DNA of 35,927 nt from an uncultured Methanosarcinales archaeon (GTDB lineage Archaea; Nanobdellota; Nanobdellia; Woesearchaeales; JAGLXL01). The notes under the pieces are model-generated. The model saw nothing but the letters and a program-made list of their open reading frames with translations, searched no databases and was not told where the DNA came from. How positions within the stretch are numbered: position 1 is the stretch's first letter; the number at the start of each line of letters is the position of its first letter. Where the stretch lies: NCBI GenBank assembly GCA_964472345.1, contig CAYYLB010000006.1:1-35927 (forward strand), given 5' to 3'. Both the position numbers and the translations under genes were made by a program. Shown here piece by piece: positions 6,194 to 33,950 of this stretch.

Positions 6194-9172
6194 ATCGACA
6201 CACGCAAGGCAGTCCCATCATCAATAAAAAAAATCAGCGACACGGTGTGGGAAATCCCGGCGTCGTACAAGCAGGGCATGCGCGCCCCCGCGCGGATCAT
6301 CGCAACGGAGCAGCTGCTCAACGCGATGGATCCCGGCGTCTTCGACCAGGTCACGAATGTCGCGACGCTGCCGGGAATCCAGAATTACGCGCTCTGCATG
6401 CCCGACGGCCACTGGGGATACGGCTTTCCCATCGGCGGCGTTGCGGCGTTTGATGCAGAAGCAGGCGTTATTTCGCCAGGGGGGGTTGGTTTTGACATAA
6501 ACTGCCTTGTAAAAAATTCAAAGATACTTACAGAATATGGGTGCACAAAAAATATCCAGGACTTTGAATCATGCTTTACTGATGTCGCCATAAGTCACCC
6601 CCAATACATACTTAAAGCAAAGCAGTGTACACAATCAGTAGTTTCATTTGACATCGATCGCAAGTTGTTTTCTTCCAAAGAAATACAAATCTTTATGAAG
6701 AAAAAACATTGCGAATCGATTGTCCAAATCAAAACGAGATTGGGTTATACACTCGAAGTTACAGAAGATCATCCAATTCTTACTGATAGGGGTATGCTGA
6801 AGGCTAATAAGCTTGTCAAAGGCGACAAAGTTGCAGTTTATCCTTTCGAAGGTGTCGATTACGAAGAACCGGAAGACGTTGTTATAATAAAAGACAAAGA
6901 CATATTCACAAAACAAGAATTGAATGAACTAGAAAAAAGATATCTTTTCCCTCTTACCATAAAAAATTCAAAAATCCCAATACTCACAAGGCTCTTTGGT
7001 TATCTGCTCGGCGACGGCAATATATACCTGTCCAAAGGAAAAGGATACATCTGTGCTTATGGTCAAGAAGACGATTTGATATACATACAGAGTGATTTTC
7101 AAAAGCTTGGTTTCTCAGCCAGAATCTACAGTAGAGAAAGAGACCACAGCATACCAACAAAATATGGGAAAGTTGAGTTTACAGCAAGAAACTATGAACT
7201 TCACGTATCCTCAAAAGCCTTGGCTAAACTTTTCTTTGCTCTTGGCTATCCAGTAGGAATCAAAACTGCTGTTCCATTTTTGGTTCCAGCTTGGATAATG
7301 GATGGTCCACTTTGGATCAAAAGATTGTTCTTATCAGGATTATTTGGCGCAGAACTTTCAAAGCCAAGAACACACACAAAAACAGGCTTCAATTGTCCTA
7401 CGCTCCAAATGAATAAGAATAGTGTGCTGCTTGAGAATGGTCGCAGGTTTTTTATTCAAATAATGTCTATGCTCGAAGCATTTGGCATAAAAACCCATAA
7501 GTTAACCGACTTCGAAGACTTCAAAAACAAACAAGGAAAAACGCACACGATAAGGCTCCTGATATCTGCCGATGAAGATAATTTGTTAAAGCTATGGTCA
7601 AAAGTCGGGTTCTCCTACAACAAAAAACGCGAAAATCTTGCGAACATAGGAGTCCTTTACATCAAAGAGAAAAAAGTGCTTACACTGAAGCGCATACAAG
7701 TAGCACGGCGTGTACAGGAATTAAAGCATCAAGGGCTAAAGATGTATGAAGTGGTTGCATTGCTTCAATCAGAAATGATTAACAAACGATTTATTCAACG
7801 CCACTATGCAGAAAACAAAGTATCGCGAATAACACCCAATTTTATCTCATTCAACGATTTCGTAGAACAAAAGAACAATGAGCTTAGAGAATACGGCTGT
7901 TCCTTTGATGCTATTGGGTCAATAACAAAAAAGCAGTACGACGATTATGTATACGATTTTAACGTCCCGGAAACGCATAATTTCATTGCTGATAACATCA
8001 TTGTCTCAAACTGCGGCATGCGTCTCGTCCTTACCAATCTCACCTTCAGCGACGTCCAGCCCGTGCTCAAAAAGCTCGTCGACCGCCTCTATGAGCGAGT
8101 CCCTGCAGGCGTCGGCTCAACGGGTTTTGTCAAATTGACGCCGGGGAAGTTCAAGGAAGCCATCGAGCTCGGCGCGAAATGGTGCGTCGAGCAGGGCTAC
8201 GGCTGGGAAGAGGATCCCGGGCGGACAGAAGAATCCGGCTGCATGGAAGGAGCGGACAGCAGCAAGGTCTCTGACAAGGCGATCTCGCGCGGCCTGAACC
8301 AGATCGGCACGCTGGGCAGCGGCAACCATTATCTCGAGATCCAGCGTGTTCTGAAAGAGAATATCCGCGACGAGGAGATTGCGAAAGCGTGGGGCATCTT
8401 CCCTGACCAGATAGTGGTGATGTTCCACTGTGGAAGCAGGGGCTTCGGCCACCAGGTTGCAACAGACCACCTGACGACATTCCTCAAGGTGATGGAGCCG
8501 AAGTATGGAATCAAGATTCTTGACCGCGAGCTGGCATGTGCGCCGTTCCATTCACCCGAAGGCCAGGCCTATTTCACCGCGATGAAGTGCGGCATCAACA
8601 TGTCATTGGCAAACCGGCAGGTGATCCTGCACCGCATCCGCGAGGTGTTTTCCGAAATCTTCAAGCGCTCGCCGGAGGAGCTGGAGATGCGCCAGGTCTA
8701 TGACGTCGCGCACAACACGGCGAAGCTGGAGGAGTACACGATCGACGGCAAGCGGAAGAAGCTGATTGTGCACCGCAAGGGCGCGACGCGGTCGTTTGGC
8801 CCGGAGCGGGAGGAAGTCCCTGCAGTCTACCGGAAGCACGGCCAGCCGGTCATCATCGGCGGCAGCATGGAAACAGGCTCATATCTTCTTGCAGGCACAA
8901 AGAAAGCCGAGGAAGAAACCTTCGGCAGCACGGCGCACGGCAGCGGCAGGACAATGTCGCGCAACGAAGCCAAGCGCACCTGGCGCGGCGAGACGCTGCA
9001 GAAGGAGATGGAGAAGCGCGGCATCTACGTGCGGACGACCTCATTCAGCGGATTGGCGGAGGAAGCCGGCCCTGCGTACAAGGATATCGACGAAGTGATT
9101 GAGGCGACGCATCTTGCGGGCATTTCGAAGAAGGTTGTGCGGTTTGTCCCTATTGGGAACGTGAAAGGCTAG
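6194..9172 (+). CDS. rtcB: RNA-splicing ligase RtcB containing an intein (start possibly ATC at 6194; first standard start codon is GTG at 6245)
   Basis: MPDGHWGYGFPIGGV, GFDIN|CGMR, GTLGSGNHYLE, HCGSRG.GH, HNTAK, HRKGAT, HGSGR, EEA..AYK motifs. Confidence 0.97.
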   Translation: MDTRKAVPSSIKKISDTVWEIPASYKQGMRAPARIIATEQLLNAMDPGVFDQVTNVATLPGIQNYALCMPDGHWGYGFPIGGVAAFDAEAGVISPGGVGFDINCLVKNSKILTEYGCTKNIQDFESCFTDVAISHPQYILKAKQCTQSVVSFDIDRKLFSSKEIQIFMKKKHCESIVQIKTRLGYTLEVTEDHPILTDRGMLKANKLVKGDKVAVYPFEGVDYEEPEDVVIIKDKDIFTKQELNELEKRYLFPLTIKNSKIPILTRLFGYLLGDGNIYLSKGKGYICAYGQEDDLIYIQSDFQKLGFSARIYSRERDHSIPTKYGKVEFTARNYELHVSSKALAKLFFALGYPVGIKTAVPFLVPAWIMDGPLWIKRLFLSGLFGAELSKPRTHTKTGFNCPTLQMNKNSVLLENGRRFFIQIMSMLEAFGIKTHKLTDFEDFKNKQGKTHTIRLLISADEDNLLKLWSKVGFSYNKKRENLANIGVLYIKEKKVLTLKRIQVARRVQELKHQGLKMYEVVALLQSEMINKRFIQRHYAENKVSRITPNFISFNDFVEQKNNELREYGCSFDAIGSITKKQYDDYVYDFNVPETHNFIADNIIVSNCGMRLVLTNLTFSDVQPVLKKLVDRLYERVPAGVGSTGFVKLTPGKFKEAIELGAKWCVEQGYGWEEDPGRTEESGCMEGADSSKVSDKAISRGLNQIGTLGSGNHYLEIQRVLKENIRDEEIAKAWGIFPDQIVVMFHCGSRGFGHQVATDHLTTFLKVMEPKYGIKILDRELACAPFHSPEGQAYFTAMKCGINMSLANRQVILHRIREVFSEIFKRSPEELEMRQVYDVAHNTAKLEEYTIDGKRKKLIVHRKGATRSFGPEREEVPAVYRKHGQPVIIGGSMETGSYLLAGTKKAEEETFGSTAHGSGRTMSRNEAKRTWRGETLQKEMEKRGIYVRTTSFSGLAEEAGPAYKDIDEVIEATHLAGISKKVVRFVPIGNVKG
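6503..8011 (+). mobile_element. Intein (503 aa) with LAGLIDADG homing endonuclease, inside rtcB
   Basis: Starts CLVKNSKI; block B TEDHPILT; LAGLIDADG-like LFGYLLGDG and FLSGLFGAEL; ends VYDFNVPETHNFIADNIIVSN followed by C(+1). Markedly AT-rich compared with the exteins. Confidence 0.97.
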
Positions 9173-9284: not shown

Positions 9285-9857
9285 ATGAACAGCGAGATAA
9301 AGATACTAAAACTGTTATTAAGCAGAAAAGAAGAACGGCCTACCATAAAAAAGATAGCTGAAAGCCTGAACATCAATTACCGGATAGCGTATGAGAAGAT
9401 AATGGGGCTCGAAAAAGAGGGCCTAATCAAAATCACAAAAGCTGGCAACTCCAAAACCTGTGAATTTACCTACAAATTCGATAACAAAGTATTTGAAGCC
9501 GAATACGAGAGAAGAAATGATCTTTTCAAAAATAAAGATTTCCTCATTTTACAGAGAAGGTTAGCCGAACTTCAATTTCCGTTTATTGCTTTACTCTTTG
9601 GTTCTCGGGCGAGCGGAACTGCAAATAAGCATTCGGATATTGACCTATTAACAATAGGCGGCGATGAGAAAGAGATAAAAGTGACGCTCTCACTACTGCC
9701 CGAGAAAATTCATTTAACTGCCGTAACCTACAAAGATTTTATACACATGGCAAAAAGCAGGGAGTTTACCGTTGTGAGCGAAGCAATTAAAAATAATATT
9801 ATACTGATTGGGATAGAAGAATACTACCGATTGCTCAAAAATGCTGGATACGCATAG
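9285..9857 (+). CDS. wHTH + minimal nucleotidyltransferase (MNT) antitoxin
   Basis: N-terminal HTH (TIKKIAESLNINYRIAYEKI..LEKEGLI) and the LFGS.A.G....SDIDLL nucleotidyltransferase motif. Confidence 0.9.
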   Translation: MNSEIKILKLLLSRKEERPTIKKIAESLNINYRIAYEKIMGLEKEGLIKITKAGNSKTCEFTYKFDNKVFEAEYERRNDLFKNKDFLILQRRLAELQFPFIALLFGSRASGTANKHSDIDLLTIGGDEKEIKVTLSLLPEKIHLTAVTYKDFIHMAKSREFTVVSEAIKNNIILIGIEEYYRLLKNAGYA

Positions 9858-10380
9858 GGTAAAAGAAGCGGAAAGCAATGTAAAACGTTACTTAGAAGAA
9901 GGGCTCCTTAAAAAAGTGGTCATGGACAAGCAGGTTATGAATATACTTTTACTCAATGCAAAAGAAAGCTTGAGGGTTGCTGAAGAAGTGCATCAAAAGA
10001 ATCTGTCTGAATTATGGGTTATTGTTTGCTCCTATTACGCAATGTATTACCACGCGAATGTTGCCCTCTTGAAGCTGGGCTATAAGGTCGGGGAAAAGAT
10101 TGTTCATAAAGTAACCTCCGATGCAATCATTGTTTATGTAAGAGGAAAGCTGAAGGAGTCCTTGATTGAAGAATACGAAGAAACAAAAGAGGAAGCATTG
10201 AATCTCGCAGGAATGAAGGCAGACGCTTTGATAGAGTCTTTTGAGTTTGAAAGAAACAAAAGAAGCTTAATCCAATACAAAACAATAAATAGTGAGAAGC
10301 AATCAAAAGCGAAAACCTCCCTGCAAAGAGCAAAAGAGTTTGCAAGAGAAATGGAAAAACTGATTGTTGATGTAACATGA
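9841..10380 (+). CDS. HEPN-domain protein (MNT-HEPN pair)
   Basis: SYYAMYY motif, H in EKIVH, R-x4-Y-type motif (KRSLIQY), C-terminal AKEF helix; overlaps the MNT gene. Confidence 0.85.
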   Translation: MLDTHRVKEAESNVKRYLEEGLLKKVVMDKQVMNILLLNAKESLRVAEEVHQKNLSELWVIVCSYYAMYYHANVALLKLGYKVGEKIVHKVTSDAIIVYVRGKLKESLIEEYEETKEEALNLAGMKADALIESFEFERNKRSLIQYKTINSEKQSKAKTSLQRAKEFAREMEKLIVDVT

Positions 10381-14301: not shown

Positions 14302-15114
14302 TCAGGAAATCCGCTTGATCTCGATGCTGATCGCCCGCTCGTTCACCCGGATCGGGCGCGGGCACAGCGTCCACTCGAGCCCTTTGCTTTTGCAGTACGC
14401 AATGAGTTTCTCCTTTTCTCCTTCATTGCCATACCGCACGGCCACATTCAGCCCCCACCGCTCGCGATGCACGATGTCGAACTGCTGCAGATCCGCGAGC
14501 GCCTGCTGCCTGGCTGACGCGAGCCGCTCAAGCCGTGCAGGGATTGCCGCGACCTTCTCATGCAGCGTTGCGATGCTCTCCTCGGGCACCTTCAGCATGC
14601 GGAAAAGCCAGTCAGCATGCGCAAGGGACTGCCTCTCGCGGGCGCTCACAAAACCGCCATAGCCTGCGTTCACGGCTTTCCACTTCCCGAACGAGCAGAC
14701 GAGCAGGTCAGCGGACGCCCCATCAGCATGCGCTGTCCCGATGGAGCCGGAAACGTCCATAAGAACGCTGCAGCCGGCGCGCCTGCACAGCCCGTAAATC
14801 TCACGCGCAGGCTGATGGGCAATGTAGCCGCCGGGATTGCTGTAGAGGAAAACGCTGTCGGCGGCAGCCTTGGCGTCAAGATCCGCGAGGTCAATCAGCC
14901 CTGCGTCCGTCGTTATCTCAGCACACTCCATCCCCAGCAGCTTGGGGAACCGCGGATAGCTGAGCCAGCCGCCCTGGTCAGGGATGAGCACGCGTTTCTT
15001 GTTTGCGCAGACGAGCGCAGCAAAAATTGCCGCATCGCCGCTTGGCACCAACCGGACAGACCGGTGGGAGGTGAGCCGGCACAGCTCGCTGATGATCGCA
15101 GAACGGGTGTTCAT
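14302..15114 (-). CDS. PLP-dependent transferase-fold protein (DegT/DnrJ-like, short)
   Basis: SGDAAI, IPDQGGW, DVSGSIG, CSFGKWK...GYGGF (candidate PLP lysine). Confidence 0.7.
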   Translation of the reverse strand: MNTRSAIISELCRLTSHRSVRLVPSGDAAIFAALVCANKKRVLIPDQGGWLSYPRFPKLLGMECAEITTDAGLIDLADLDAKAAADSVFLYSNPGGYIAHQPAREIYGLCRRAGCSVLMDVSGSIGTAHADGASADLLVCSFGKWKAVNAGYGGFVSARERQSLAHADWLFRMLKVPEESIATLHEKVAAIPARLERLASARQQALADLQQFDIVHRERWGLNVAVRYGNEGEKEKLIAYCKSKGLEWTLCPRPIRVNERAISIEIKRIS

Positions 15115-16307
15115 CGCGCGGTCTGCATGAATCGCTCAATCCGGTCGTACGCCTCGTGCAGGATATCAGGCTGCGGCAGGAAGGCGACGCGGAAGTGCAT
15201 GGTGCCCTTCTGCTGGCCGAAGCCGGAGCCGTGCACCACGACCACGCCTTCGCGCTCCATGAGCTCAAGGACCCACTGCTTGTCGTCCGCATGTTTCGTT
15301 GAAGTGATACAGGGAAACGCGTAGAAGGCAGCGCGCGGCATGACACAGGAAACCCCCGTGATGGCGTTGAGCCGCTCGAAGGTGATTGTTGCGCGCTCCT
15401 GCATCTTCGCGACCGTCTGCGCGAGATGCTCCTGCGGCCCTTCGAGCGCCGCCTTGATGGCGAACTGGGGCGGCGTGGGGCTGCAGAGCCTTGCGTCGAG
15501 AAGGTTGTTGATCGTGCTCGCGCAGGCGCTTGAGGGCTCGATGTTGCTCTCGATGATCCAGCCGGCGCGCCAGCCCGGCGCGAGGTAGTTCTTGGACAGG
15601 CCGTTGAACGTGAAGACCGGGACATCGGTCGTCAGGCTCGCAGCGGGGACATGCGCCGCGCCATCATAGAGGAGCTGGTCGTAAATCTCGTCGGAGATGA
15701 TCGGGATGCCGCGCTCACCCGCAATATCAACGACCTGCTGGACGGTTTTCCTGCCCGCGACACCTCCGGTGGGGTTGTTGGGGTTGATGAGCAGGATGGC
15801 GCGCGTCTTTTCCGTGACGCTCCTGCGCAGCTCGTCGGCATCGGGCTGCCAGCCGTCGTCCTCACGGAGCGGATAGGGAGCGATGGAAGCGCCGATTTTC
15901 GTTGCGACGGCATGGTACAGCGGATAATTGGGGACAGGAGCGAGGATGTTCTCGCCGGGGTTCAGCAGCGTCTGCAGCACGATGTCGACTCCTTCGCTGA
16001 CACCCGTGGTGACGGCCACATTCTCGCTGCTCACCTGTGCGATGCCTTTCTTCCTCGCGCTGCGTGCGATGGCTTCCCGCGCCTCGTCGACGCCGGAGGA
16101 GAATGCATAGTAGTTCTTGTTGCCGTACAGCGCAGCGCTGCACGCATCGAGCATGTGCCTCGGCGCAGGAAAATCATACTTTCCCGGGTCGCCGATGTTG
16201 AGGTAGATCAGCTTCCTGCCCTGCCTCTCGAGCTCTTGTGCGCGGCGCGCGACATTCCTCACGGCATAGGTGACCTTCGCTGCGTTGCGTGACACCGGAA
16301 TGTCCAT
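15111..16307 (-). CDS. Class I/II aminotransferase (alanine aminotransferase-like)
   Basis: LNIGDP, GVSE, NPNNPTG, SDEIYD, GLSKNY..PGWRAG, HGSGFG, HFR. Confidence 0.93.
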   Translation of the reverse strand: MDIPVSRNAAKVTYAVRNVARRAQELERQGRKLIYLNIGDPGKYDFPAPRHMLDACSAALYGNKNYYAFSSGVDEAREAIARSARKKGIAQVSSENVAVTTGVSEGVDIVLQTLLNPGENILAPVPNYPLYHAVATKIGASIAPYPLREDDGWQPDADELRRSVTEKTRAILLINPNNPTGGVAGRKTVQQVVDIAGERGIPIISDEIYDQLLYDGAAHVPAASLTTDVPVFTFNGLSKNYLAPGWRAGWIIESNIEPSSACASTINNLLDARLCSPTPPQFAIKAALEGPQEHLAQTVAKMQERATITFERLNAITGVSCVMPRAAFYAFPCITSTKHADDKQWVLELMEREGVVVVHGSGFGQQKGTMHFRVAFLPQPDILHEAYDRIERFMQTAR

Positions 16308-16342
16308 AATCTATAAAAGGGCGTGCGGTATTTATATGGGTT

Positions 16343-16852
16343 ATGGTCGCTGGACGGGCAGGAGGGGGCCCGATGCAGGGTTGTTGCGGAATGGGATGCT
16401 GCCTGCTGGTGGGGAGCGACGCCCAGCAGAATGATTATATCTGGCTGAATACGCCCGGAACGATTCCCAACCCGTGCGGGGGCAATGACTGGGCTGCCTG
16501 CACGAAGGATGCGCAATGTTCTTCGGGCAGGTGCGATGATGGGAAGTGCAGCCCCTGCAATTCGAGAGAATGCACGCATGCGAACAACCAGGTCTGCGTG
16601 GGGAATAATCAGGTCTATGCGACTAACCAGCTATTCTGCCAGCCCCAGCCCGGAGATGGTGATCTCTTCATTCAGTGTATAGCAGCCAATCACACCGGAT
16701 GCGAACAGCGGGGGTTCTATTATTGCACCAACCAAGGCGGTCAGGGATGGGCGTGGCGGGTGTGCGATGTGAAAGGCTGCGTGAACAATCAATGCTTGAC
16801 AGAAGTGCCGCAGATTTGCGTGGATACGGGGGTGGTGAGGGTTGAAATATAG
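16343..16852 (+). CDS. Cysteine-rich extracellular-type protein, probably a fragment (no signal peptide)
   Basis: Dense Cys pattern (C..DAQCSSGRC..GKC); ends at the first membrane-protein gene. Start uncertain (alternative ATG at 16373 after GGAGG). Confidence 0.55.
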   Translation: MVAGRAGGGPMQGCCGMGCCLLVGSDAQQNDYIWLNTPGTIPNPCGGNDWAACTKDAQCSSGRCDDGKCSPCNSRECTHANNQVCVGNNQVYATNQLFCQPQPGDGDLFIQCIAANHTGCEQRGFYYCTNQGGQGWAWRVCDVKGCVNNQCLTEVPQICVDTGVVRVEI

Positions 16853-17189
16853 GATGATGGATAAGAGTAAAGCTAAAAAAGGAATCGTAACCCTATTCTC
16901 AAACTTCTTAAAAACCTATAGAAATGGGTTAATCTACGGGTTGTTGGTCGGGGTAGCCTTTATTCCATTAACACTTTTGCTGGGGTGGGTTGTTCGGGGT
17001 CAGAGTAAGGCACTCTTATCAATAGTAACCCTCCCTTTTTATCCTGCTGCACTGATTGGATCATCCTTTTGTAGGGTGGGAAATGTTTGTAATGTTGGTC
17101 TTCCGGTTTTAGTTTTGACCCCATTGATCTATGCTGTCATAGGATTAGTAATCCAGATTTTGGTACAAGCCCTAAAGAGAAAAATATGA
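16842..17189 (+). CDS. Small membrane protein A (about 3 TM)
   Basis: Hydrophobic segments; C-terminal IYAVIGLVI..L..KRK. Start TTG 16842 or ATG 16854. Confidence 0.8.
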   Translation: MKYRMMDKSKAKKGIVTLFSNFLKTYRNGLIYGLLVGVAFIPLTLLLGWVVRGQSKALLSIVTLPFYPAALIGSSFCRVGNVCNVGLPVLVLTPLIYAVIGLVIQILVQALKRKI

Positions 17190-20100
17190 AAACACAACCC
17201 AGAAAATATCTCATAAACTTTCTGGTATTTTTACTCTTAGTATCACTAATAGACACAGTAAACGCCTTAAAGCAGAGTGTCCCCTTAATCAACGCTGATG
17301 ATGTTTGGGATAATGGATTTGAAGGTGATGGTGTGGGTGTTTGTGTACTCGATTCTGGAGTTGATAGAAATAATCCACTTCTTTCTGGAAAAGTCATTGT
17401 AGAAAAGTGCTTTTGTGATATTGGTGGTGGTTGTTGTCCCAACGGTCAAACAACACAAGAAGGTACAGGAGCTGCGGCTGATAGTTTTGGTCATGGGACA
17501 GCGGTAGCTGGGGTTGTGGTCTCTCAGCATAGCAAACGAAGAGGAGTCGCTCCTCGTGCGGCTATAGTTGCTGTGCGGGTTTCAGACGACGATGGAAACG
17601 TAGACTGGGCTGGGGTTAGGCAAGCTGTAGATTGGTGTAACAATGAAAGACTCACATATAATATTAAAGTTATTTCTATGAGTCTTGGACAAAGCCTTTA
17701 TGACAATATAGATTCTTGTAATAGTGCTACTCCTATACTCAGCCAGTCAATAACGAATGCGGCAAGTAATAGAATTTTTGTTACTGCTGGTGCTAGTAAT
17801 GATGGTAATATTACACATATAGGAAATCCTGCTTGTACCACTAATACCATCTCTGTTGGTGGTGTTTATGATACAAATATCCCCTATCCTTCTGTTGTGC
17901 TCGGATCATATTTCCCACCAAGCTTTACCTGCGCTGAGGTGTCTTTAAAAGATAAGATAACTTGTTATTCAAATAGGGGTAAGCTGTTGGATTTGCTAGC
18001 TCCAAGCAGCTTCATAAGAACAGTAACGTTTTCTCCTTTGTCTCCCCATGGAGATTCCGGGACATCTTTCGCTACTCCACACGTTGCTGGCGCAGCAGCC
18101 TTAATCTACCAGCTTAGTGATGAAAACAACCTTAACCTAGACCCAGATGAAATCAAAAACGTCCTTCAAGCCACGGGCAAAGAAATAAAAGACAAGACAT
18201 TCTTTGGCAAGGTAATCGGAAGATACAAAAGAATTGACGTTGCTGCTGCATTTGCCAGCCTTGACAGGTCATATTCTTTGCAAACTTTAAGCTGCGGCGA
18301 CGCTAACTTATATATCTCTAATACGGGAAGCTCACGTGATTATGTTGAGCACTTTACTTCATACAATCTCGCTCCCGGCCAATCTGTCAACCTAACATTC
18401 AATGTTGTTTCTTCCATGCTTACAAAGGATAATTACAACGGTGAAGTACAGGTATTCTCAAATGCGCAGGGCAATTCCACTATTGCAATCCCATTTAGTA
18501 TCTCTAAGTTTGCAAGCCAAGGTTTGGATGAAGCGAATGAAGGCACTTTGCTGGCATTATCCAGAAGACAGCCCGGCGCGCAGGGCATCTACCAAAGCAA
18601 GTTATTTATTGATCCGAATGAGACGGACAATCTGGAGATATTGTTTAATCTGCTGACGGATGCTGGGATAAGCTTTACCATAACACGACCTGACGGCTCT
18701 AATATTACTGGAAGCTCAATAGCTTCAAATCCGAACAGCACAATATTCGAGAATCCACAAAATGGGACATGGATTATCACTTTGAATACAACGGCAACAG
18801 ATGATGTTGACTTCTCCATAGAAACCACCCCCTTCCCTTCCGACAACCCCGCCACCGGCATCAACTTCTCCGATGTAAGGATAGGCTATATTGATACCTG
18901 TTCAGTACCGAACACAGCTGGCTTGCGCATCGCGATGCGGGCAACAGAAAATAACACAGCCCCCATCAACGCCACCAACGCAACCGACATGGCCTCAAAT
19001 GCGTTCTTGACAGCGTTGGTAACCCCAAATGATAAGTTAACAGTCAACCTGCCACCCAATGAAGTGATTATTGATGATACATTTGCGCAGACGCAGCTTG
19101 CTGATGTTCTTTTAACTGCGGACGTCGCATTGAAGAAAGAGAATGCAGCGGAGTTTGAGCAGGTGCTTGAGCAGGCGTGCAATAACTGGACGGCTACCAT
19201 TAACCAGACGACCTACTACCCCAAGATCAAGAATGCTTTCCACTGCCCTTCGTTCAGCGCGCGGAGGACCATCGTGATAAGCAACGCAACGCTCAACGGG
19301 ACGGAATGCGACGCCTATGTGAGCGGTGTCCAGCTGAAGATTCTCGAAACGGTTGACGGTGTGTGGGCTGATTATTCTTCCTATGGCCTGACGCAGAATG
19401 AGACGGATGATGCCAACAGTAAGCTGCCGGCGTGGAAGAGCACGCTCCAGAACCTGTTCGACACGGCTGACGTTCCTGTGCTGAACACGAAAGCCAATAC
19501 CAACGCGACCTACGCTGATCTGAGGCGTGTGAGTGCTTCCATCGCCATGGCTCACTGGTATAAGCAGCTGCCGCGGGAGAACCTGCTGCTTGCGGACCTC
19601 ATTGACAGTGAAAATATCACTGCGGTTGGCGTCAACCGCACCTTCAATGAGTCCTATTGGGTCGCGCAGAGCTACCAGAAGCTCTTCACGACTGATTTGA
19701 ACCTCACGAACGGGAACTTTACGTTTGACTTCTATGGCGGAGTAGCGTTTGACAATGTGACTACCACCACTATTGGGAATATCAGCTCAGAGACACAGAT
19801 AGCAATCGACAATTCTCTAACCAAAAAATCTCAAAACATAAGCGCATTGTATTACTATTCTTCCATGCTCCTGAGTGATAAGCCTGATCTCAAACCGCTC
19901 TCGGTTTACTTCAACACCAGCCAACCGCTCATCAATCAGCAGGTCGATATCACTGCAGTCGTCAAAAACAAGGGCGGCCAAGCCGCTTCGAATTTCACCG
20001 TCAGGTTTTATTCCGAATACTTTTATCCCACCGGTGATTTCGTGCTCGTCAACATAGGAGAGCGCAATATCACCGGTCTCGCCGCAGGACAAACGACAAC

Positions 20101-20638
20101 CGTTTCATTATTAGGGAACTTCTCTTTTACAGGCGATCATGACGTCTTCGCTGAAGTAGATTCTGGAAATACTGTCCTCGAAAGTAATGAGCTCAATAAT
20201 CTGCGTTCGTCAACAATAACCGTTGCGACGCCCTCCCCCACCGCCGCCATCACCTCGCCCTCAGACAACACCGGATTTTATGCGTATGAAACTATAACCT
20301 TTGAAGGCTCAGCGAACGACCCGCAGGACGGCGCTCTGAACGGAACGTCTTTGACATGGAAATCTAATCTGGATGGGAGTTTGGGAACGGGCACAAGCAT
20401 CTCAGCCGCTTTATCGACGGGCTATCACACAATAACACTTACTGCAACCGACAGCGACGGAAACGTTAATAACGCGACGATACAAATTCCGATAACTGCG
20501 TCTGCGCCGCCGGAAGCTTTCATAACAAGCCCAGTCGCTTCCCAGAAATTCATCTTCGGAAAAGTGATAAACTTTGAAGGGTATGGGAAGGATAAGGAAG
20601 ACGGGGTAAAGATATTAAATGAAGGTGAGGGATTATGA
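17186..20638 (+). CDS. Secreted multidomain S8 (subtilisin-like) protease: signal peptide, S8, Ig-like/PPC-like, uncharacterised domain, CARDB, PKD/Ig-like; ends mid-repeat
   Basis: Catalytic triad VLDSG / HGTAVAG / SGTSFATPHVAG; CARDB PDL...VDSGNTVLESNELNN; repeat ITSP...FEGSANDPQDG...HTITLTATDSDG followed by a second copy cut after FEGYGKDKEDG. Many N-x-S/T sequons. Confidence 0.9.
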   Translation: MKTQPRKYLINFLVFLLLVSLIDTVNALKQSVPLINADDVWDNGFEGDGVGVCVLDSGVDRNNPLLSGKVIVEKCFCDIGGGCCPNGQTTQEGTGAAADSFGHGTAVAGVVVSQHSKRRGVAPRAAIVAVRVSDDDGNVDWAGVRQAVDWCNNERLTYNIKVISMSLGQSLYDNIDSCNSATPILSQSITNAASNRIFVTAGASNDGNITHIGNPACTTNTISVGGVYDTNIPYPSVVLGSYFPPSFTCAEVSLKDKITCYSNRGKLLDLLAPSSFIRTVTFSPLSPHGDSGTSFATPHVAGAAALIYQLSDENNLNLDPDEIKNVLQATGKEIKDKTFFGKVIGRYKRIDVAAAFASLDRSYSLQTLSCGDANLYISNTGSSRDYVEHFTSYNLAPGQSVNLTFNVVSSMLTKDNYNGEVQVFSNAQGNSTIAIPFSISKFASQGLDEANEGTLLALSRRQPGAQGIYQSKLFIDPNETDNLEILFNLLTDAGISFTITRPDGSNITGSSIASNPNSTIFENPQNGTWIITLNTTATDDVDFSIETTPFPSDNPATGINFSDVRIGYIDTCSVPNTAGLRIAMRATENNTAPINATNATDMASNAFLTALVTPNDKLTVNLPPNEVIIDDTFAQTQLADVLLTADVALKKENAAEFEQVLEQACNNWTATINQTTYYPKIKNAFHCPSFSARRTIVISNATLNGTECDAYVSGVQLKILETVDGVWADYSSYGLTQNETDDANSKLPAWKSTLQNLFDTADVPVLNTKANTNATYADLRRVSASIAMAHWYKQLPRENLLLADLIDSENITAVGVNRTFNESYWVAQSYQKLFTTDLNLTNGNFTFDFYGGVAFDNVTTTTIGNISSETQIAIDNSLTKKSQNISALYYYSSMLLSDKPDLKPLSVYFNTSQPLINQQVDITAVVKNKGGQAASNFTVRFYSEYFYPTGDFVLVNIGERNITGLAAGQTTTVSLLGNFSFTGDHDVFAEVDSGNTVLESNELNNLRSSTITVATPSPTAAITSPSDNTGFYAYETITFEGSANDPQDGALNGTSLTWKSNLDGSLGTGTSISAALSTGYHTITLTATDSDGNVNNATIQIPITASAPPEAFITSPVASQKFIFGKVINFEGYGKDKEDGVKILNEGEGL

Positions 20639-21066
20639 GTAAAAAAATAAAAGGACTTAAAGTATATATTATAACAACGATCATTTTTGCTGTTCTAGGG
20701 GCAGCGATTGCGATACCCACTGCCGAATTATCAGCAAACTTAGAATTAAAACATTGTGAACCGGCCATACTTGATGAGAGATTCCAAAATGATGTAAATG
20801 GTGTTCCATTATGCGAAAAATTATCTGAAGAAAGAGTAGCTGGAATGAATCAATTTTGTAAAGATGGAAAACTCTACTCTCTTCAGAAAAAAGAATCGTG
20901 CATAAACAAAGTAATCTTTTTTCCATTCTTTCCTTGGGTAGAAAATATGCATTCGGATGCAGGTTTGGCTATAATCCCACTGGTTATAATTTATGGTGGT
21001 TTTGTAGGATTTTTAATTGGTTTGTTGATATCTTTTATAATTTATAAGATTAAACGAAATGGTTAA
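20635..21066 (+). CDS. Small membrane protein B
   Basis: N-terminal TM, Cys-containing loop, C-terminal TM IYGGFVGFLIGLLI...KIKR. SD GAAGGTGAGG upstream; ATGA overlap with the protease gene. Confidence 0.85.
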   Translation: MSKKIKGLKVYIITTIIFAVLGAAIAIPTAELSANLELKHCEPAILDERFQNDVNGVPLCEKLSEERVAGMNQFCKDGKLYSLQKKESCINKVIFFPFFPWVENMHSDAGLAIIPLVIIYGGFVGFLIGLLISFIIYKIKRNG

Positions 21067-21676
21067 CACACAAGCAAAAATAAATATTGGGGTAATGTTA
21101 CATTTAGTAGTTATTTCTTTGATTTTTGTTACGATAAATGTTAGTGCGACCGATTGGTACAAAGGTAGCTTGCATCAACACACTGGGTTTAGTACAGAAA
21201 CGGGGTACGATGGAGTAGAGGGCCAAGGGGGCGACGATTGTTCAGAATTGCTAGAAGGACTTCCACAAACAATAGAATATGGCAAAAACGTTTCAAACCT
21301 TACCCAATCCGCCCTCAGCAAAGGCCTTTCCTGGCTCTCCTTCACAGACCATTCATACTGCTTGGACGAAAATGAGTTCAATGTTGTGAAAAACGACTGC
21401 AACACAGAAGATTCAGCTAGATCTAATTTCGCCTGCTTGTCGGGAACGGAACTGAGCGTTCGGGAGCACTCTCCTGAAATTGAGCCAATCATTTCTACCT
21501 CATGCGCAAATGTTTTATTTGGTGAAGCGCATCTTGGCGCCAACGGGATCAACAGCTATGTCGGGCAGTATCCTTTCGGGTTTCACTGCCCAATATCGCC
21601 AAAAGCGCAGACTGGGATTAACGATGCAAACAATATTTTAGTTAATTTAACTGAAAAAGAAGGTGAGGATTTATGA
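21059..21676 (+). CDS. Secreted PHP-domain (CehA/McbA-like) metallohydrolase, N-terminal fragment 1
   Basis: Signal peptide, WYKGSLHQHT, FTDH, GTELS, AH; lacks the later AHP and D-x-H motifs. Confidence 0.8.
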   Translation: MVNTQAKINIGVMLHLVVISLIFVTINVSATDWYKGSLHQHTGFSTETGYDGVEGQGGDDCSELLEGLPQTIEYGKNVSNLTQSALSKGLSWLSFTDHSYCLDENEFNVVKNDCNTEDSARSNFACLSGTELSVREHSPEIEPIISTSCANVLFGEAHLGANGINSYVGQYPFGFHCPISPKAQTGINDANNILVNLTEKEGEDL

Positions 21677-22206
21677 AAAAAACAACCATATGGAAATTTA
21701 TTTTAATTGGGTTAATGCCAATTTTGTTCATAAATTTTTTTAGGATAATTATCCAATTAGGACCCAACCAATTTAAAGGAGTTTCATTCTCCAACCTAGT
21801 TTATGGGTTGATTATAATATTCGGGATGATATTGTATGGTTTGATATTGGCATTTATCACATCAATCCCAAGTCTTGTAGTTGTTGGGCTATGTTCTTTT
21901 GTGATTTACTTTCTAAATAGAAACAAAATGGGAAAAGGAATTGTTTATATACTCACAATTGTCAGTTTTGCAATTATGGGATTATTTCTTTCATATAGTT
22001 TGTTTGGCATAACTGATAAGATGGATGCATTTATATATCCAAATTTTATGTTAAAGTCAATAAACAGTGCCCATCCAGATGATTTTATTAGTGGTGCATT
22101 CTTACTTTCGAATTATGGTGTAGTTGTAGGATTTGTTGTGGGGTTATTTGTTTCGATTATTTATTATTTCAGAAAAAAACTTATTGGTAAAAAATATGAG
22201 AAATAA
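21673..22206 (+). CDS. Membrane protein C (4-5 TM)
   Basis: Multiple hydrophobic segments; C-terminal NYGVVVGFVVGLFV...FRKK. SD GAAGGTGAGG upstream; ATGA overlap with the PHP-1 gene. Confidence 0.85.
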   Translation: MKKTTIWKFILIGLMPILFINFFRIIIQLGPNQFKGVSFSNLVYGLIIIFGMILYGLILAFITSIPSLVVVGLCSFVIYFLNRNKMGKGIVYILTIVSFAIMGLFLSYSLFGITDKMDAFIYPNFMLKSINSAHPDDFISGAFLLSNYGVVVGFVVGLFVSIIYYFRKKLIGKKYEK

Positions 22207-22900
22207 AAATAAGTCAATAATAAGAGTATTGCTTCTTACAGCAATATTTGTACTCAGCTTAGATGTTGTACTTGCCGATTGGTATAAAGGATCAACACAC
22301 CAACATACGGGTTTTAGTACTGCTAAAGGCTATGACCATAACCTAGTTACACTTAATGATATGTGCCCCCCCACTGTAGAAGGAAACCCATTTGATTTCC
22401 CGACTGAGGGTAATATTGTATCGGAGCTTAAACAAAACGCAACCGCTTTGAATCTTTCCTGGTTGGCTTTCACAGATCACAGCTACTGTTTAGACCAGGA
22501 CGAATTCCAGACTGTTAAAACAGACTATTCTAACGCGCAACAAGCAGGAACATTTGCCTGCTTGAACGGGGAAGAATTAAGTGTAAGTGAGGAAGTGCTC
22601 GATTTCGAATCACACGTAACATTAGGGGGTACATGCCGCAACATTCTCTATGGCGAAGCACACATACAAGCTGTCGGCATTGATAGCTATATCGCACAAA
22701 CGCCTTTTGGCGTGCACTGCCCACTTGCGCCAAAAGCGCAGAAGGCTATAAAAGACATCAAATCAAAAAATGGCTTGGCGATTATAGCACATCCAGATTC
22801 TGTGATCGGTTTTGAATTTTTGGATTTTGAGGGCATAAACAAAGTTAGAGATGAGGATGGGATAGAGATATGGAACGGAGAGTGGGGGGTGCCGGAATGA
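22196..22900 (+). CDS. Secreted PHP-domain metallohydrolase, N-terminal fragment 2 (paralog of 21059-21676)
   Basis: Signal peptide from ATG 22196, WYKGSTHQHT, FTDH, GEELS, AH, IAHP, GIEIWN; stops before the terminal D-x-H motif. Confidence 0.8.
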   Translation: MRNKNKSIIRVLLLTAIFVLSLDVVLADWYKGSTHQHTGFSTAKGYDHNLVTLNDMCPPTVEGNPFDFPTEGNIVSELKQNATALNLSWLAFTDHSYCLDQDEFQTVKTDYSNAQQAGTFACLNGEELSVSEEVLDFESHVTLGGTCRNILYGEAHIQAVGIDSYIAQTPFGVHCPLAPKAQKAIKDIKSKNGLAIIAHPDSVIGFEFLDFEGINKVRDEDGIEIWNGEWGVPE

Positions 22901-24144
22901 CGCAGCAACCTGACGCGCCGCTGCGCCGCAAGCGAGCTTCGCAAAAGGGGCCGGGCGGCCGGAGCGCCGATCTGCGGGACTCACCGCTCTACGAGCCGCG
23001 CGAGGATTCCTGGCTGCTGCAGAAGCATGTCAGGCGCCTCGCGCGCGGAACCGTGCTGGATATGGGAACCGGCTCCGGCATCCAGGCGCTCACGGCTGCG
23101 GCGAAGCGGAGCGTGAAGCGCGTCTGGGCGGCTGACTGCAACCCGCGCGCCGTCGCGCACTGCCGGAAGCTGCGGCACCCGAAAATCCGCTGCGTCCTCT
23201 CTGACCTCTTCTCCGCCTTCCGCGCGCCGCGTGCGTTCGACACCATTATCCTCAATCCGCCCTATCTGCCGGCTGACGCAAGCGAAACAGCGGACGAGGC
23301 ACGCATCCTGAGCGGCGGAAAGCACGGCTGGGAGCTGCTCGGGCGTTTCTTTGCCGGAGCCGGGCCGTTCCTCAGGCCCGACGGCAGGATCCTCATCGTC
23401 TTCTCATCGCTGACAGGCAGGGAGAAGGTCGATTCCCTCATCCGGCGGCACGGCTTCGTTTTCCGGGAGCTTGAGCAGCAGCCGTTCTTCTTCGAGCGGC
23501 TCTCCTGCTATGCGGTGCGCTGGAACCCTGCGCTGCGGCGCGTGATGAAGCGCGGCGTGCGCAACGTGGCGTACTTCACCCACGGCAAGCGCGGCCTGAT
23601 TTTCACCGGCACGTATCATGGAACGGGCGCCGCAATAAAGATCAAGCGGCCGGAAAGCGCCGCAGAGAACCGGATCGCCAACGAGGCGCGGTGGCTGAAG
23701 AAGTTTAACGCGCATGGCATCGGCCCGAAGCTTTTCTTCGCCGGCAGCGGCTTCGTGGTGTACCGGTTCGTGGACGGCGGATTCCTGCTGCCGTGGATCG
23801 GGCGCAGCGGGAAAACAGCAGTCCGGCGGGTGCTGCGCGCGCTTCTTGGGCAGTGCTTCGTTCTTGACGCGCTCAGCGTCAGCAAGGAGGAGATGCACCA
23901 TCCGACAAAGCATATCATCATGGCAAAAAGGAACGAGCCCGTCCTGCTCGACTTTGAGCGGACGCACCGCACGGCAAAACCGCAGAACGTCACGCAGTTT
24001 GTCCAGTACCTCTGCAGGCTGCAGCCGCTGCTCGCACGGAAAGGGTTCACCTTCACGCCGCAGGCGCTGCGCGAAGCCGCAAGGCGGTATAAATGGCAGC
24101 CGGGCAGGAAAAGGCTGGAAACCCTCAGCGCGCTCCTCACATGA
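22897..24144 (+). CDS. HemK2/Mtq2-like protein methyltransferase fused to a C-terminal kinase-like domain
   Basis: YEPREDS.LL, LDMGTGSGI, NPPY, GGKHG; C-terminal HGKRG..F, AIK, NEA..L, GIGP, LDFE. Start at ATG 22897. Confidence 0.88.
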   Translation: MTQQPDAPLRRKRASQKGPGGRSADLRDSPLYEPREDSWLLQKHVRRLARGTVLDMGTGSGIQALTAAAKRSVKRVWAADCNPRAVAHCRKLRHPKIRCVLSDLFSAFRAPRAFDTIILNPPYLPADASETADEARILSGGKHGWELLGRFFAGAGPFLRPDGRILIVFSSLTGREKVDSLIRRHGFVFRELEQQPFFFERLSCYAVRWNPALRRVMKRGVRNVAYFTHGKRGLIFTGTYHGTGAAIKIKRPESAAENRIANEARWLKKFNAHGIGPKLFFAGSGFVVYRFVDGGFLLPWIGRSGKTAVRRVLRALLGQCFVLDALSVSKEEMHHPTKHIIMAKRNEPVLLDFERTHRTAKPQNVTQFVQYLCRLQPLLARKGFTFTPQALREAARRYKWQPGRKRLETLSALLT

Positions 24145-32375: not shown

Positions 32376-33950
32376 ATGCTCTTCCAGCGCCTCGTGGAGG
32401 TCTTTGAGCAGCTCGGGCAGACCAGCTCCGGCAACAGGCTGCGGGAGCTCCTCTCCGCATTCTTCAGGCGCGTGCCGCCGCAGGAGATCGGGAAAGCGTG
32501 CTACCTCACCCTGGGCAGCATCGCGTCCGCCTACGAAGGCGTTGTTTTTGGCATGGCGGAAAAGATGGTGCTCAGGAGCATCGCTGCCGCTTCCGCCATA
32601 TCTGAGGAAACCGCCCAGGAGGCATTCAGAAAGCTCGGCGATGCGGGCATGGTCGCCGCAGCGCATCTCAGGGGCAAGGGCGGAAAGCTCACGATCCAGG
32701 AGGTTTTCCAGCGCCTGCACGCGATCGCAGCCGCGCATGGCGAGCGAAGCCAGGAGCGCAAGATCAGCGAGCTCGCGGCACTGATGCGGCGCGCCTCCCC
32801 CATTGAAGCGAAATATCTCGCACGGATCGTCCTTGGAACGCTCCGCCTTGGCGTCGCTGACATGACAGTGCTCGACAGCCTTTCCATCGCGTTCACCGGC
32901 GGCAAGAAAAGCAAGGCGCAGCTCGAGCACGCCTATAACATCTGCCCTGATGTTGGCATCCTCGCAACGGCGCTCGCAGCCAACGGAATGCGCAGCATCG
33001 GCAGCATCGGCGTGCGCGTAGGCCGGCCGGTCAAGATGATGCTCGCGCAGCGCGCAGCGTCCATCAGGGAAATCATGGAGCGCATGCCCGCCGGCGTTGC
33101 CGCAGAGGAGAAGTACGACGGCGAGCGGGTGCAGATCCACAAGAAGGGCAGCCGTGTGACGCTGTTCTCCCGCCGCATGGACACCGTCACCGGACAGTTC
33201 CCTGAGCTTGCTGCGGCAGCCGGACAGCTGAAAAGTGAGTTCATCATCGAAGGGGAGATCGTCCCTCTCGGCCCAAAAGGCGGGCTGCTTCCCTTCCAGA
33301 CGCTCATGCAGCGGCGCAGGAAGCATGACATCGCCGCCTATCAGAAGAAGATCCCGGTCGCCGTTTTCCTTTTCGATGTCCTTTACGTGAATGGGAGGAG
33401 CCTCCTGCGCACACCCTACAATGAGCGGCAGGAAGCGCTGCGCAGGCTTGTGGGGAAGGAAACGCGGGTGCTGCGCTTCGCCAGGAAAACGCTCTCGGAT
33501 GACCGTGACGAGATCGAGAGCTTCTTCAACGAATGCGTCGAGCGCGGAACCGAGGGGATCATCGCGAAAGATCCCCATGGTGCGTATCAGGCGGGCAGGC
33601 GCGGCTATCTCTGGATCAAGTGGAAGCGCGAGTACGCGAAAGAGCTGCGCGACACCNNNNNNNNNNNNNNNNNNNNNNNNNNNNNNNNNNNNNNNNNNNN
33701 NNNNNNNNNNNNNNNNNNNNNNNNNNNNNNNNNNNNNNNNNNNNNNNNNNNNNNNNCCTGGTTCGAGCCCGCGCTCGTGGTCGAGGTGCTCGGCGCTGAG
33801 CTGACACGGAGCCCGCTGCATACCTGCGCTGAAAAGGGCGGCACGGGGCTTGCGCTGCGCTTCCCGCGCCTGCTGCGCTTCCGCAATGACAAGAAGCCCG
33901 AGCAGGCGACGACGAGCAGGGAGATATGGGGGATGTATGGGAAACAATAA
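32376..33950 (+). CDS. lig: ATP-dependent DNA ligase (spans an assembly gap)
   Basis: [57 protein letters not shown]. Confidence 0.96.
33657..33756. other. Assembly gap (100 N)
   Basis: Run of N; probably a placeholder shorter than the missing OB-domain segment of the ligase. Confidence 0.95.

Follow-up and report, generated by a model that had tools for sequence, protein, structure and literature searches.

An imported block of membrane-protein genes and truncated exported-enzyme genes in front of hemK2 in a Woesearchaeales archaeon

Why would a small archaeal genome carry, directly in front of a resident essential gene, a row of genes for exported enzymes that have all lost their 3' parts? 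The question is raised by a stretch of 35,927 nucleotides (nt) from an uncultured archaeon of the Woesearchaeales (GenBank assembly GCA_964472345.1, contig CAYYLB010000006.1), called the window below, in which genes for small transmembrane (TM) proteins alternate with genes for one secreted S8 serine protease and two PHP-domain proteins. The window is the entire contig C6 of a genome of 1.26 Mb in 120 contigs (G000). DPANN archaea live attached to other cells and have genomes of about 1 Mb, and large surface proteins are suspected of a part in holding on to hosts, in feeding and in fighting.

Our preferred account, for which confidence is moderate, is that the block is an imported piece of a surface operon of DPANN archaea, that its modules, each a TM gene coupled in translation to an enzyme gene, become stacked and truncate each other, and that each TM protein would be a cognate partner to its enzyme. 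In what follows, homologous loci are numbered L0xx, homologous proteins P0xxx and genomes Gxxx. The loci comprise 6 from species-representative genomes and 31 from JGI metagenomes (37 in all), along with 2 further genome regions.

The gene block and its truncated enzymes

The preliminary description of this DNA, made from the sequence alone, gave the gene order as Cys-rich fragment, TM-A, S8 protease, TM-B, PHP-1, TM-C and PHP-2, on a single strand and overlapping throughout, and the open reading frames (ORFs) are arranged as described (Table 1). Genes overlap at every junction, as ATGA at 17186, 20635, 21673 and 22897, by 8 nt at 21059 and by 11 nt at 22196. A 31-nt repeat that holds a Shine-Dalgarno (SD) sequence and an ATG is common to the S8-to-TM-B (20617-20647) and PHP-1-to-TM-C (21655-21685) junctions, where its copies are 81% alike; it is the sole repeat at module borders in the window, and the protein tails KILNEGEGL and ILVNLTEKEGEDL are encoded by the stretch in which it lies. 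Pfam and NCBIfam contain no matching family for TM-A, TM-B, TM-C, PHP-1 or the Cys-rich ORF. The TATA-like boxes near 16330 suit the divergent aminotransferase gene equally well by their position, and they may serve either or both directions.

Table 1. Features of the window; the gene block and its flanks are followed by other genes of the contig.
Feature	Position	Strand	Remarks
Aminotransferase gene	15111-16307	-	Divergent from the Cys-rich ORF
Intergenic stretch, aminotransferase/Cys-rich ORF	16283..16342		Two TATA-like boxes, read by eye
Cys-rich ORF	16343..16852	+	5'-truncated copy of a secreted-protein gene; first ~26 codons are local DNA; natural C-terminus kept
TM-A	16842/16854-17189	+	111 amino acids (aa) from ATG 16854; 2 hydrophobic segments; SD GGTGAGG upstream; stop overlaps S8 start (ATGA)
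S8 serine protease, secreted	17186-20638	+	1150 aa; Peptidase_S8 47-331, CARDB 899-1008, Ig 1018-1102; without own SD
Joint of S8 and TM-B unit	20605..20647	+	Ig-repeat homology ends near 20604; 31-nt SD/ATG repeat 20617-20647
TM-B	20635-21066	+	143 aa; N- and C-terminal TM helix, Cys-bearing loop; family c2
PHP-1	21059-21676	+	Signal peptide and N-terminal 2/3 of PHP barrel (HQH, TDHSYC, GTELSV, GEAH); without SD; overlaps TM-B stop
TM-C	21673-22206	+	177 aa; ~5 hydrophobic segments, polytopic; basic C-terminus; SD GGTGAGG; family c2
PHP-2	22196-22900	+	Signal peptide and PHP barrel through strand 6; AHP and IEIWNG present; stop overlaps hemK2 ATG
hemK2/MTQ2 methyltransferase gene	22897-24144	+	Resident, GC-rich; ATGA coupling to PHP-2 stub
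rtcB	6245-9172	+	In-frame AT-rich intein; Pfam Intein_splicing, LAGLIDADG_3, RtcB; AT-rich part ~6500-8000
Overlapping AT-rich gene pair	9285-9857 and 9841-10380	+	First: Polbeta/NTP_transf_2, TrmB-like N-terminus; second: no family match
Thrombospondin type 3 repeat protein gene	34865-35839	-	AT-rich (32% GC), at contig end

The preliminary description had the S8 protein stopping within its second Ig repeat, PHP-1 before an AHP motif and PHP-2 before a D-x-H motif, and comparison with full-length homologs shows each of these cuts. The S8 catalytic domain is whole (PF00082 at 125.6 bits, against a cut-off of 21.8), with LDSGVD at residue 55, HGTAVAG at 103 and GTSFATPH at 292, which we take to be the motifs of the Asp/His/Ser triad. 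The protein stops 34 residues into the second ~91-residue Ig repeat (repeat D1, 273-nt spacing); the homolog P0010 (1698 aa) continues with further Ig repeats of the same kind. The nearest homolog, P0012 (44% identity over residues 28-593), has a tail that looks frameshifted and was set aside as uninformative. The sequence collection calls the window gene as a 740-aa protein (P0001) from an internal Met; the frame is open from 17186, and the catalytic domain is apparently omitted in that call.

A scan of 1.84 billion representative proteins with PHP-2 recovered 87 proteins at E <= 1e-3, itself included, 53 of them at <= 1e-10 and 15 at <= 1e-30. Many are 400-1,500 residues long and match in their N-terminal part, and full-length PHP homologs range from about 450 to >1,800 residues. 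After the motif IEIWNGEW these continue with a helix, a GGTDxH strand and a beta-sandwich ending in YTNPIW, followed by C-terminal parts that vary (LamG, beta-helix, CARDB, Ig, CBM, MopE-type Cys repeats) and that look like adhesins. The predicted structure of the 403-aa homolog P0048 (pLDDT 92) consists of a PHP barrel (residues 34-292) and the beta-sandwich (295-402). Its best Foldseek match is the two-domain PHP phosphoesterase BVU_3505 (PDB 3e38, E = 2.6e-10), which shares this two-domain architecture, followed by 2anu and the PHP domain of RNase AM (7ug9). The archaeal proteins differ from 3e38 and from CehA/McbA in that sequence identity is 12-16% and in that they are exported, have conserved cysteines and adhesin-like tails, and are paired with a TM gene. 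A search of PDB sequences with PHP-2 gave no match at E up to 1.

We used a 388-position hidden Markov model (HMM) of the full PHP and beta-sandwich unit as reference. PHP-1 covers positions 8-181 and PHP-2 positions 1-219. PHP-1 lacks AHP, the glutamate of IEIWNG and D-x-H, and PHP-2 lacks D-x-H; the PHP-2 model (pLDDT 87.5) ends after strand 6, with helix 6, the D-x-H strand and the beta-sandwich missing. Full-length relatives have all the metal motifs (H41, H43, H95, E126, H156, H199, E220 and D257 are invariant or nearly so), and the complete set (HxH, E, H, H, DxH) on a seven-stranded barrel is absent from both window copies. The CehA/McbA family model NF038032 scores PHP-2 at 32.7 bits, below its cut-off of 80, and over model positions 2-149 of 315 only; PHP-1 gave no match to it, and Pfam matched neither protein. 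There is no leftover of the missing 3' parts of the enzyme genes anywhere in the window, and no further PHP gene in the assembled genome. As a separate observation, residue 111 of PHP-2 (22526-22528) is Tyr where at least 90% of aligned homologs, including an 85%-identical copy on L032, have Cys.

The Cys-rich ORF is, as described, a fragment; unlike the enzyme genes it is cut at the 5' end and not at the 3' end: residues 27-169 correspond to residues 189-331, the last 143, of the 331-aa secreted protein P0124 (86% identity), and the signal peptide and first ~188 residues of P0124 are lacking. A likeness between this ORF and the Cys-rich tails of PHP proteins was rejected as composition-level only (E of 0.002 or worse in a small database).

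The block from about 16421 to 22887 (~6.5 kb) is a horizontally acquired piece of a foreign surface-protein operon. This conclusion is drawn because the block is AT-rich in a genome of 57% GC, because PHP genes are rare in the phylum, because the genes at its ends are broken and because it interrupts the synteny at hemK2. Its GC content is 28-47% over most of its length, against about 60-70% in the flanks, with sharp steps at ~16800 and 22880; G000 (~57% GC overall) contains other AT-rich patches as well. Inside the S8 gene the GC content differs between the 5' end (about 40%) and 18800-19600 (53-58%), a sign that this gene may be a mosaic. Searches with PHP-2 matched 0 of 40 relatives of the same family and order, and the PHP profile matched 8 of the 401 genomes sampled from the phylum; these 8, among them G000, are spread across families. 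The nearest PHP genes are in Woesearchaeota metagenome-assembled genomes (MAGs) of 32-36% GC, and one is in an Altiarchaeota MAG. The left joint lies near 16421 inside the Cys-rich ORF and the right joint near 22887 inside PHP-2, so that there is a broken gene at each end, the Cys-rich gene without its 5' part and PHP-2 without its 3' part. That the block as a whole was imported, as a fragment whose terminal genes are both broken, is missing from the preliminary description. A 153-aa gene directly precedes hemK2, overlapping or abutting it, in 3 of the 4 family relatives examined; its counterpart in G000 is on another contig (C15:10714-11175, minus strand), and the block therefore marks a synteny break. 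The hemK2 regions fetched from other family members have 27-45% GC.

The junctions, for which misassembly had been raised as a possibility, are real by a comparison of the window with Logan contigs built run by run. The stretch is present in four groundwater runs from a single study, and their contigs bridge the joints without a difference: run X2 over 16000-20012, 21553-21760 and 22608-23500, X1 over 20419-21102 and 21751-22668, and X4 over 22406-23338. These runs may include the source samples, and their contigs thus amount to a second assembly, not to independent DNA. The inner joints are also present on related contigs from other metagenomes. Over 20082-22634, X2 and X4 have shorter contigs and lower depth than in the flanks; as each contig has a single depth value, we draw nothing from this about population heterogeneity, nor from bins without coverage.

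A recurrent TM-to-enzyme module

The repeating unit proposed in the preliminary description, an SD sequence with a TM gene and the 5' part of an enzyme gene, is also found outside this genome, both in other genomes and in metagenomes, as is the link of TM gene to secreted enzyme. A small multi-TM ORF, defined as a small ORF with two or more hydrophobic segments ending at the start codon, precedes 22 of the 28 non-duplicate PHP genes whose upstream DNA could be inspected; among other ORFs of at least 300 aa at the same loci the count is 2 of 33 (Fisher p = 4e-9). Of the 6 PHP genes without a call, the one on L006 is an in-frame TM-PHP fusion (P0057 is likewise fused). The remaining five are members of a distant subfamily whose proteins are ~200 residues longer at the N-terminus and for which the start was guessed wrongly; by eye, a small hydrophobic ORF lies beside the true start in these too. 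Those on L054 and L057 have one segment and would fail the two-segment rule, and those on L057 and L061 are no longer than about 50 aa.

An SD core (GGAG, GAGG or GGTG at -19 to -5) is found at 24 of 29 TM genes and at 2 of 26 enzyme genes. The enzyme genes start within the A-rich codons of the basic tail of the TM protein, and the TM-A/S8 pair of the window follows the same pattern, TM-A with and S8 without an SD. Because the enzyme genes lack an SD of their own and start on the TM stop codon, we infer that translation is coupled, such that the enzyme would be made only after its TM partner. From this arrangement the TM protein is a candidate cognate partner of the enzyme, either as an anchor or assembly factor or for self-protection.

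The TM proteins fall into cluster c1 with 15 sequences, cluster c2 with 4 (TM-B, TM-C, L031_1038 and L032_720) and the singleton TM-A. An HMM of c1 found none of the three window TM proteins at E < 1. Weak links between TM proteins in an all-against-all phmmer search were discarded as noise, since 2 matches were to reversed controls. In the ESM Atlas, TM-C and the TM protein of L004 fell into unnamed clusters; the nearest named family for TM-C was Colicin_im at 0.78, a level often reached by chance. Co-folding of TM-C (5-row alignment) with PHP-2 (63 rows) scored 0.00, which counts neither for nor against binding.

Truncated PHP genes are common among the 37 loci and the window. We identified 13 non-duplicate stubs, in which the stop codon falls inside the contig before the unit is complete, and they end at positions 67, 78, 125, 129, 132, 144, 147, 158, 181, 182, 184, 219 and 335 of the 388-position model. 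Near-duplicates of the last, on L038 and L039, end at 353. In 11 of the 13 a small TM gene follows directly; the exceptions are the stub on L056 and the window PHP-2, which meets hemK2. The last 4-15 residues of the stubs are encoded by the leader of the next gene, giving tails such as EGEGL, EGEDL, EGDGL, KGGLI and EGGDGR before the stop. The cut points concentrate at three places, after GEELSV, near position 182 and after GIEIWNG; the end point of PHP-2 is shared by P0038 and P0050, and that of PHP-1 by P0041 and L033. Contig L031 begins with the sequence of the P0050 tail. A stub lies upstream of a full-length copy in L031, L034 and L005/L038, as does a 478-aa copy without the C-terminal part in L036. 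Stacking thus appears to be a habit of the whole PHP family and not of the window alone.

A separate case is the array L062 (G413:C26:4000-11879), with four alternating TM/PHP modules whose PHP proteins have 452, 685, 331 (cut at 314) and 175 aa (cut at 102). Start and stop codons overlap throughout, and the two stubs are at the downstream end. P0074 (226 aa) begins as a PHP-like stub without the HxH and DH motifs and continues with an S8-type HGTHVTG, as a chimera of the two window enzyme families. A candidate microhomology at the joint of L059 (ELKDNV in both the stub tail and the end of the upstream protein) was rejected and left as a lead, as the DNA alignment supports just 21 nt around the ATG.

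That the array would vary among relatives is borne out by L032 and L033, which are rearranged relative to the window. L033 aligns to it twice at 81-82% identity (bases 1-761 to 21763-22526, and bases 688-1193 to 21325-21851), and its order is TM-C, a hybrid with the first ~100 residues of PHP-2 and the rest of PHP-1 up to the same cut end, and TM-C again. The exchange point lies in the conserved stretch WLxFTDHSYCLD, and this layout would be expected if the two PHP copies of a window-type array had undergone unequal crossing-over. L032 carries TM-B and PHP-1 (81%), with PHP-1 cut at 125 and not at 181, then a different c2-type TM gene and a PHP-2-like gene (90.5% DNA and 85% protein identity to the window). 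In a tree built from the N-terminal ~125 residues of 48 rows, without duplicates, PHP-1 and PHP-2 of the window fall in one well-supported clade of 9 with sequences of L031, L032 and L033, and are not sisters. The stub of L031 and its full-length neighbor are sisters (100/94), indicative of duplication in place; the two copies of L005 are far apart. Arrays thus grow both by local duplication and by the joining of more distant modules.

The stubs are under purifying selection. We estimated the ratio of non-synonymous to synonymous divergence (dN/dS) by the Nei-Gojobori method between the window and L032 or L033. For the part of PHP-1 with the shared cut end (85 codons, dS 0.80), dN/dS is 0.08, with 28.5 of 58 synonymous and 12.5 of 197 non-synonymous sites differing (p = 2e-12). 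The value is 0.13 for the N part of PHP-1, and for PHP-2 it is 0.12 against L032 and 0.19 against L033. The TM genes behave alike, at 0.11 for TM-B (84% identical to the TM gene tail on L032) and 0.16-0.26 for TM-C (84% identical to the L033 copy). Pairs of full-length PHP genes give 0.07-0.42; the stubs (0.08-0.19) are thus as constrained as full-length genes. The PHP-1/TM-C joint is shared with L033, and the cut is therefore older than the divergence. Together with the low dN/dS this implies that the stub has been selected at the protein level as a stub, barring repeated correction from full-length genes; G000 as assembled has no full-length PHP gene that could correct its stubs.

Competing explanations and known systems

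We propose that the source would be a surface-protein operon such as those carried by Woesearchaeota-type DPANN archaea with AT-rich genomes, and the recipient a GC-rich relative. The block would have been joined by illegitimate recombination directly upstream of the resident hemK2, with the PHP-2 frame closing on the hemK2 ATG. Its module would consist of a TM gene with an SD followed by the gene of a Sec-exported enzyme, an S8 protease or a PHP phosphoesterase, normally with a long adhesin-like tail, and synthesis of the enzyme would have to await that of its membrane partner and keep pace with it. Through tandem duplication, unequal crossing-over and illegitimate joining, a new unit (about 20-40 nt of leader, a TM gene and an enzyme gene) may land inside the preceding enzyme gene, which would be left as an N-terminal stub with its signal peptide, reading into the SD of the next unit. 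Such stubs would be kept as translated leaders or for a residual role. The S8-to-TM-B and PHP-1-to-TM-C cuts were already present in the donor lineage, and the cuts at the two ends, which removed the 5' part of the Cys-rich gene and the 3' part of PHP-2, date from the import or from a later deletion.

Several points weigh against this account. The link of TM protein to enzyme is a rule of position only, and a single partner family is not supported: c1 and c2 have no detectable relationship (hhalign probability 4.7%). The TM calls rest on a simple hydropathy rule, and many loci are kin from few metagenomes (Ga0209541/2, Ga0209343, Ga03152xx, JADDYB01), so that the counts overstate independence. 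For S8 genes elsewhere, the fetched flanks were too short to look for an upstream TM gene, and the resident S8 paralog on contig C3 has none. The downstream stubs of G413 mean that having the full-length copy last is not a rule, and origin of the joints by insertion, duplication or deletion is not separable from these sequences. Low dN/dS on incomplete barrels without metal ligands lacks a good functional explanation; part of it could come from divergence while the genes were full-length, or from gene conversion. The loss of the nearly invariant Cys in PHP-2 hints at decay in G000, and no RNA run is recorded among the four that contain the stretch.

In the open-access full texts searched, we found no paper describing the TM-to-PHP module, and it was compared with systems of similar layout. 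According to Kirchberger et al. (2017, PMC5361080), arrays of orphan immunity genes of the Vibrio cholerae type VI secretion system (T6SS) arise by sequential displacement of effector-immunity modules. The likeness is that transferred two-gene modules pile up, the incoming module takes the place of the older effector while the older partner gene is kept, arrays differ among close relatives and mosaics form by homologous recombination. In V. cholerae the immunity gene is downstream of the effector and the orphans collect at the 3' end, whereas in the window the membrane gene is upstream. The window further differs in what is left over, a long N-terminal stub of the enzyme that is under purifying selection, and in having no secretion machine close by. 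The retention of partner genes together with remnants of effectors, variability among relatives and transfer are all found here, as a likeness of process only and with reversed polarity.

In contact-dependent inhibition (CDI; cdiA-CT/cdiI) and Rhs systems the conserved part is N-terminal, the toxin tip is C-terminal and the immunity gene lies downstream. Orphans of these systems resemble the window in being arrays of gene fragments with a small partner gene, in which homology allows recombination with the full-length gene. The window differs in its conserved N-terminal enzyme, its adhesin-like variable part and its upstream partner, and has no toxin domain in Pfam or NCBIfam. Alternative toxin folds at one end of the protein, as in polymorphic toxins, are not seen, the N-terminal domain being always PHP. 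The small TM gene adjoins the enzyme-encoding end in the 22 of 28 cases given above, and an immunity role for it would be an analogy. Phage holin-endolysin cassettes have a small membrane protein of 1-4 TM helices with a charged C-terminus, encoded directly upstream of and overlapping the hydrolase gene, and this overlap is shared. Unlike endolysins, the window-type enzymes have signal peptides, are not of muralytic families and reach >1,800 aa; no phage genes are nearby among the Pfam matches of the contig. Integron-type cassettes are likewise not indicated, as attC-like or inverted-repeat border sites are lacking and no integrase is among the window Pfam matches.

The nearest archaeal precedent of a hypervariable surface module is VARTIG of the Thermococcales (Makarova et al., 2021, PMC8416519), a recombining module around a large secreted Ig-domain protein that its authors liken to polymorphic toxin systems. 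In VARTIG it is the C-terminal Ig domain of one large protein that is hypervariable, with variable genes following; the proteins and the gene order are different ones. Alternating TM/enzyme units and N-terminal stubs are not described for it, and the authors report no VARTIG outside the Thermococcales.

One alternative, in line with the preliminary description, is a mirror-image polymorphic effector/immunity system, in which the enzymes would attack the envelopes of hosts or competitors, the TM protein would be the immunity protein made first, and orphan cassettes would protect and recombine. We consider it unlikely. The TM gene always comes first and the enzyme gene has no SD, such that no enzyme would be made without the TM protein; intact and constrained TM genes lie beside cut enzymes, much as orphan immunity genes do in the V. 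cholerae T6SS (PMC5361080); several unrelated TM families are paired with one enzyme family; the distribution is patchy, as for transferred genes; the L033 recombinant swaps the TM gene with the first ~100 PHP residues; and a cut or shorter copy lies upstream of a full-length one in L031, L034, L005/L038 and L036. The swappable N-terminal effector domains that had been envisaged are nevertheless not supported, as the N-terminal domain is PHP throughout, one family on the tree, and it is the adhesin-like C-termini that vary. The toxin/immunity reading finds no support in family matches either, since Pfam and NCBIfam gave no toxin or immunity family and the Colicin_im hit is at chance level. G000 has no full-length PHP gene for its stubs to feed, the G413 stubs are downstream, and toxicity and immunity of the products are predicted by analogy only. 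Another alternative is plain decay, with tandem giant surface-protein genes collapsed by deletions into dead remnants that are still open, as the preliminary description had allowed. The anatomy fits: all three enzymes lack C-terminal parts whose DNA is gone from the window, metal ligands are missing from PHP-1 and PHP-2, which could not form a whole barrel, PHP-2 has lost a conserved Cys, an in-frame deletion variant exists elsewhere (P0054) and the tail of P0012 looks frameshifted. The selection on the stubs does not fit, and we regard decay as improbable. Their dN/dS is 0.08-0.19 at dS 0.8-1.2 without internal stops in AT-rich DNA, including a stub whose cut end two lineages share; each cut leads exactly into the SD of the next gene with no spacer, which random deletions would not be expected to do; and the same cut positions recur in unrelated contexts.

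Equally strong purifying selection on stubs and full genes, recurrent ends (after GEELSV, after GIEIWNG and near position 182) and intact signal peptides could also mean that the short forms are the intended products, functional small secreted PHP fragments in an ordinary operon. The idea that homologs are naturally this short is half borne out: short forms recur and are conserved (P0038; P0041/L033), and full-length homologs exist too, a relative for each stub. The ends are spread over model positions 67-353, the fragments lack 1 to 5 of the seven barrel strands with their ligands, and the tails come from the leader of the next gene and not from conserved coding sequence, all of which makes this very improbable. 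Hardly credible is a chimera of assembly or binning, with AT-rich DNA of another organism joined to a GC-rich contig. The sharp GC steps would be explained by it, and the contig has a 100-N scaffold gap elsewhere (33657-33756) and loose single-contig ends at 18160, 20865, 20998, 21006, 21707 and 22046; against this, the per-run assemblies cross both GC steps and all inner joints without difference, the reading frames pass the joints with start/stop overlaps, an AT-rich intein interrupts a resident gene in frame, and related contigs from other metagenomes have the same inner joints. We therefore retain the imported, stacking operon fragment as the preferred explanation.

A further reading can be put forward tentatively, and as a whole it is unlikely: a mobile DPANN surface module in which the TM protein must be translated before an exported PHP phosphoesterase-adhesin or S8 protease would be a mirror image of effector-immunity loci, and displaced modules would persist as selected orphans of TM gene and enzyme stub. 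The arrays would then both record and mediate conflict or host attachment, and the stubs would be functional, for example as decoys, as assembly partners of the TM protein or as a recombination reservoir for the part near the signal peptide.

Contig context and meaning of the module

The contig carries housekeeping genes of an ordinary archaeal kind, for eIF2-gamma, TFB, SRP54, an XPD-type helicase, RtcB, Rpr2 and MGMT. Its other AT-rich patches are mobile or accessory DNA, such as the LAGLIDADG intein in rtcB (Table 1). The overlapping AT-rich gene pair downstream of rtcB resembles what we take to be a minimal nucleotidyltransferase-type toxin-antitoxin pair, and the thrombospondin type 3 repeat protein at the contig end is probably another imported surface protein. 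hemK2/MTQ2 encodes a C-terminal extra domain of ~200 residues without a Pfam match, which is kept in family relatives (matches to residue ~406) and is a separate ORF in G012; by eye it may be akin to a small kinase-type domain.

The window holds cut copies only, in a recipient genome; through them it exposes an undescribed and widely scattered module and an unexplained conservation of stubs. The unit offered for study is a small membrane protein and an exported PHP enzyme-adhesin, probably coupled in translation, which is patchy in the phylum, moves between lineages and is stacked. If the TM proteins are self-protection or anchoring partners, these loci would be candidates for an archaeal equivalent of effector-immunity arrays, with the polarity reversed. 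If they are not, the locus is a clear case of an imported surface-protein operon that was trimmed and wired into the resident essential gene hemK2 of a streamlined genome.

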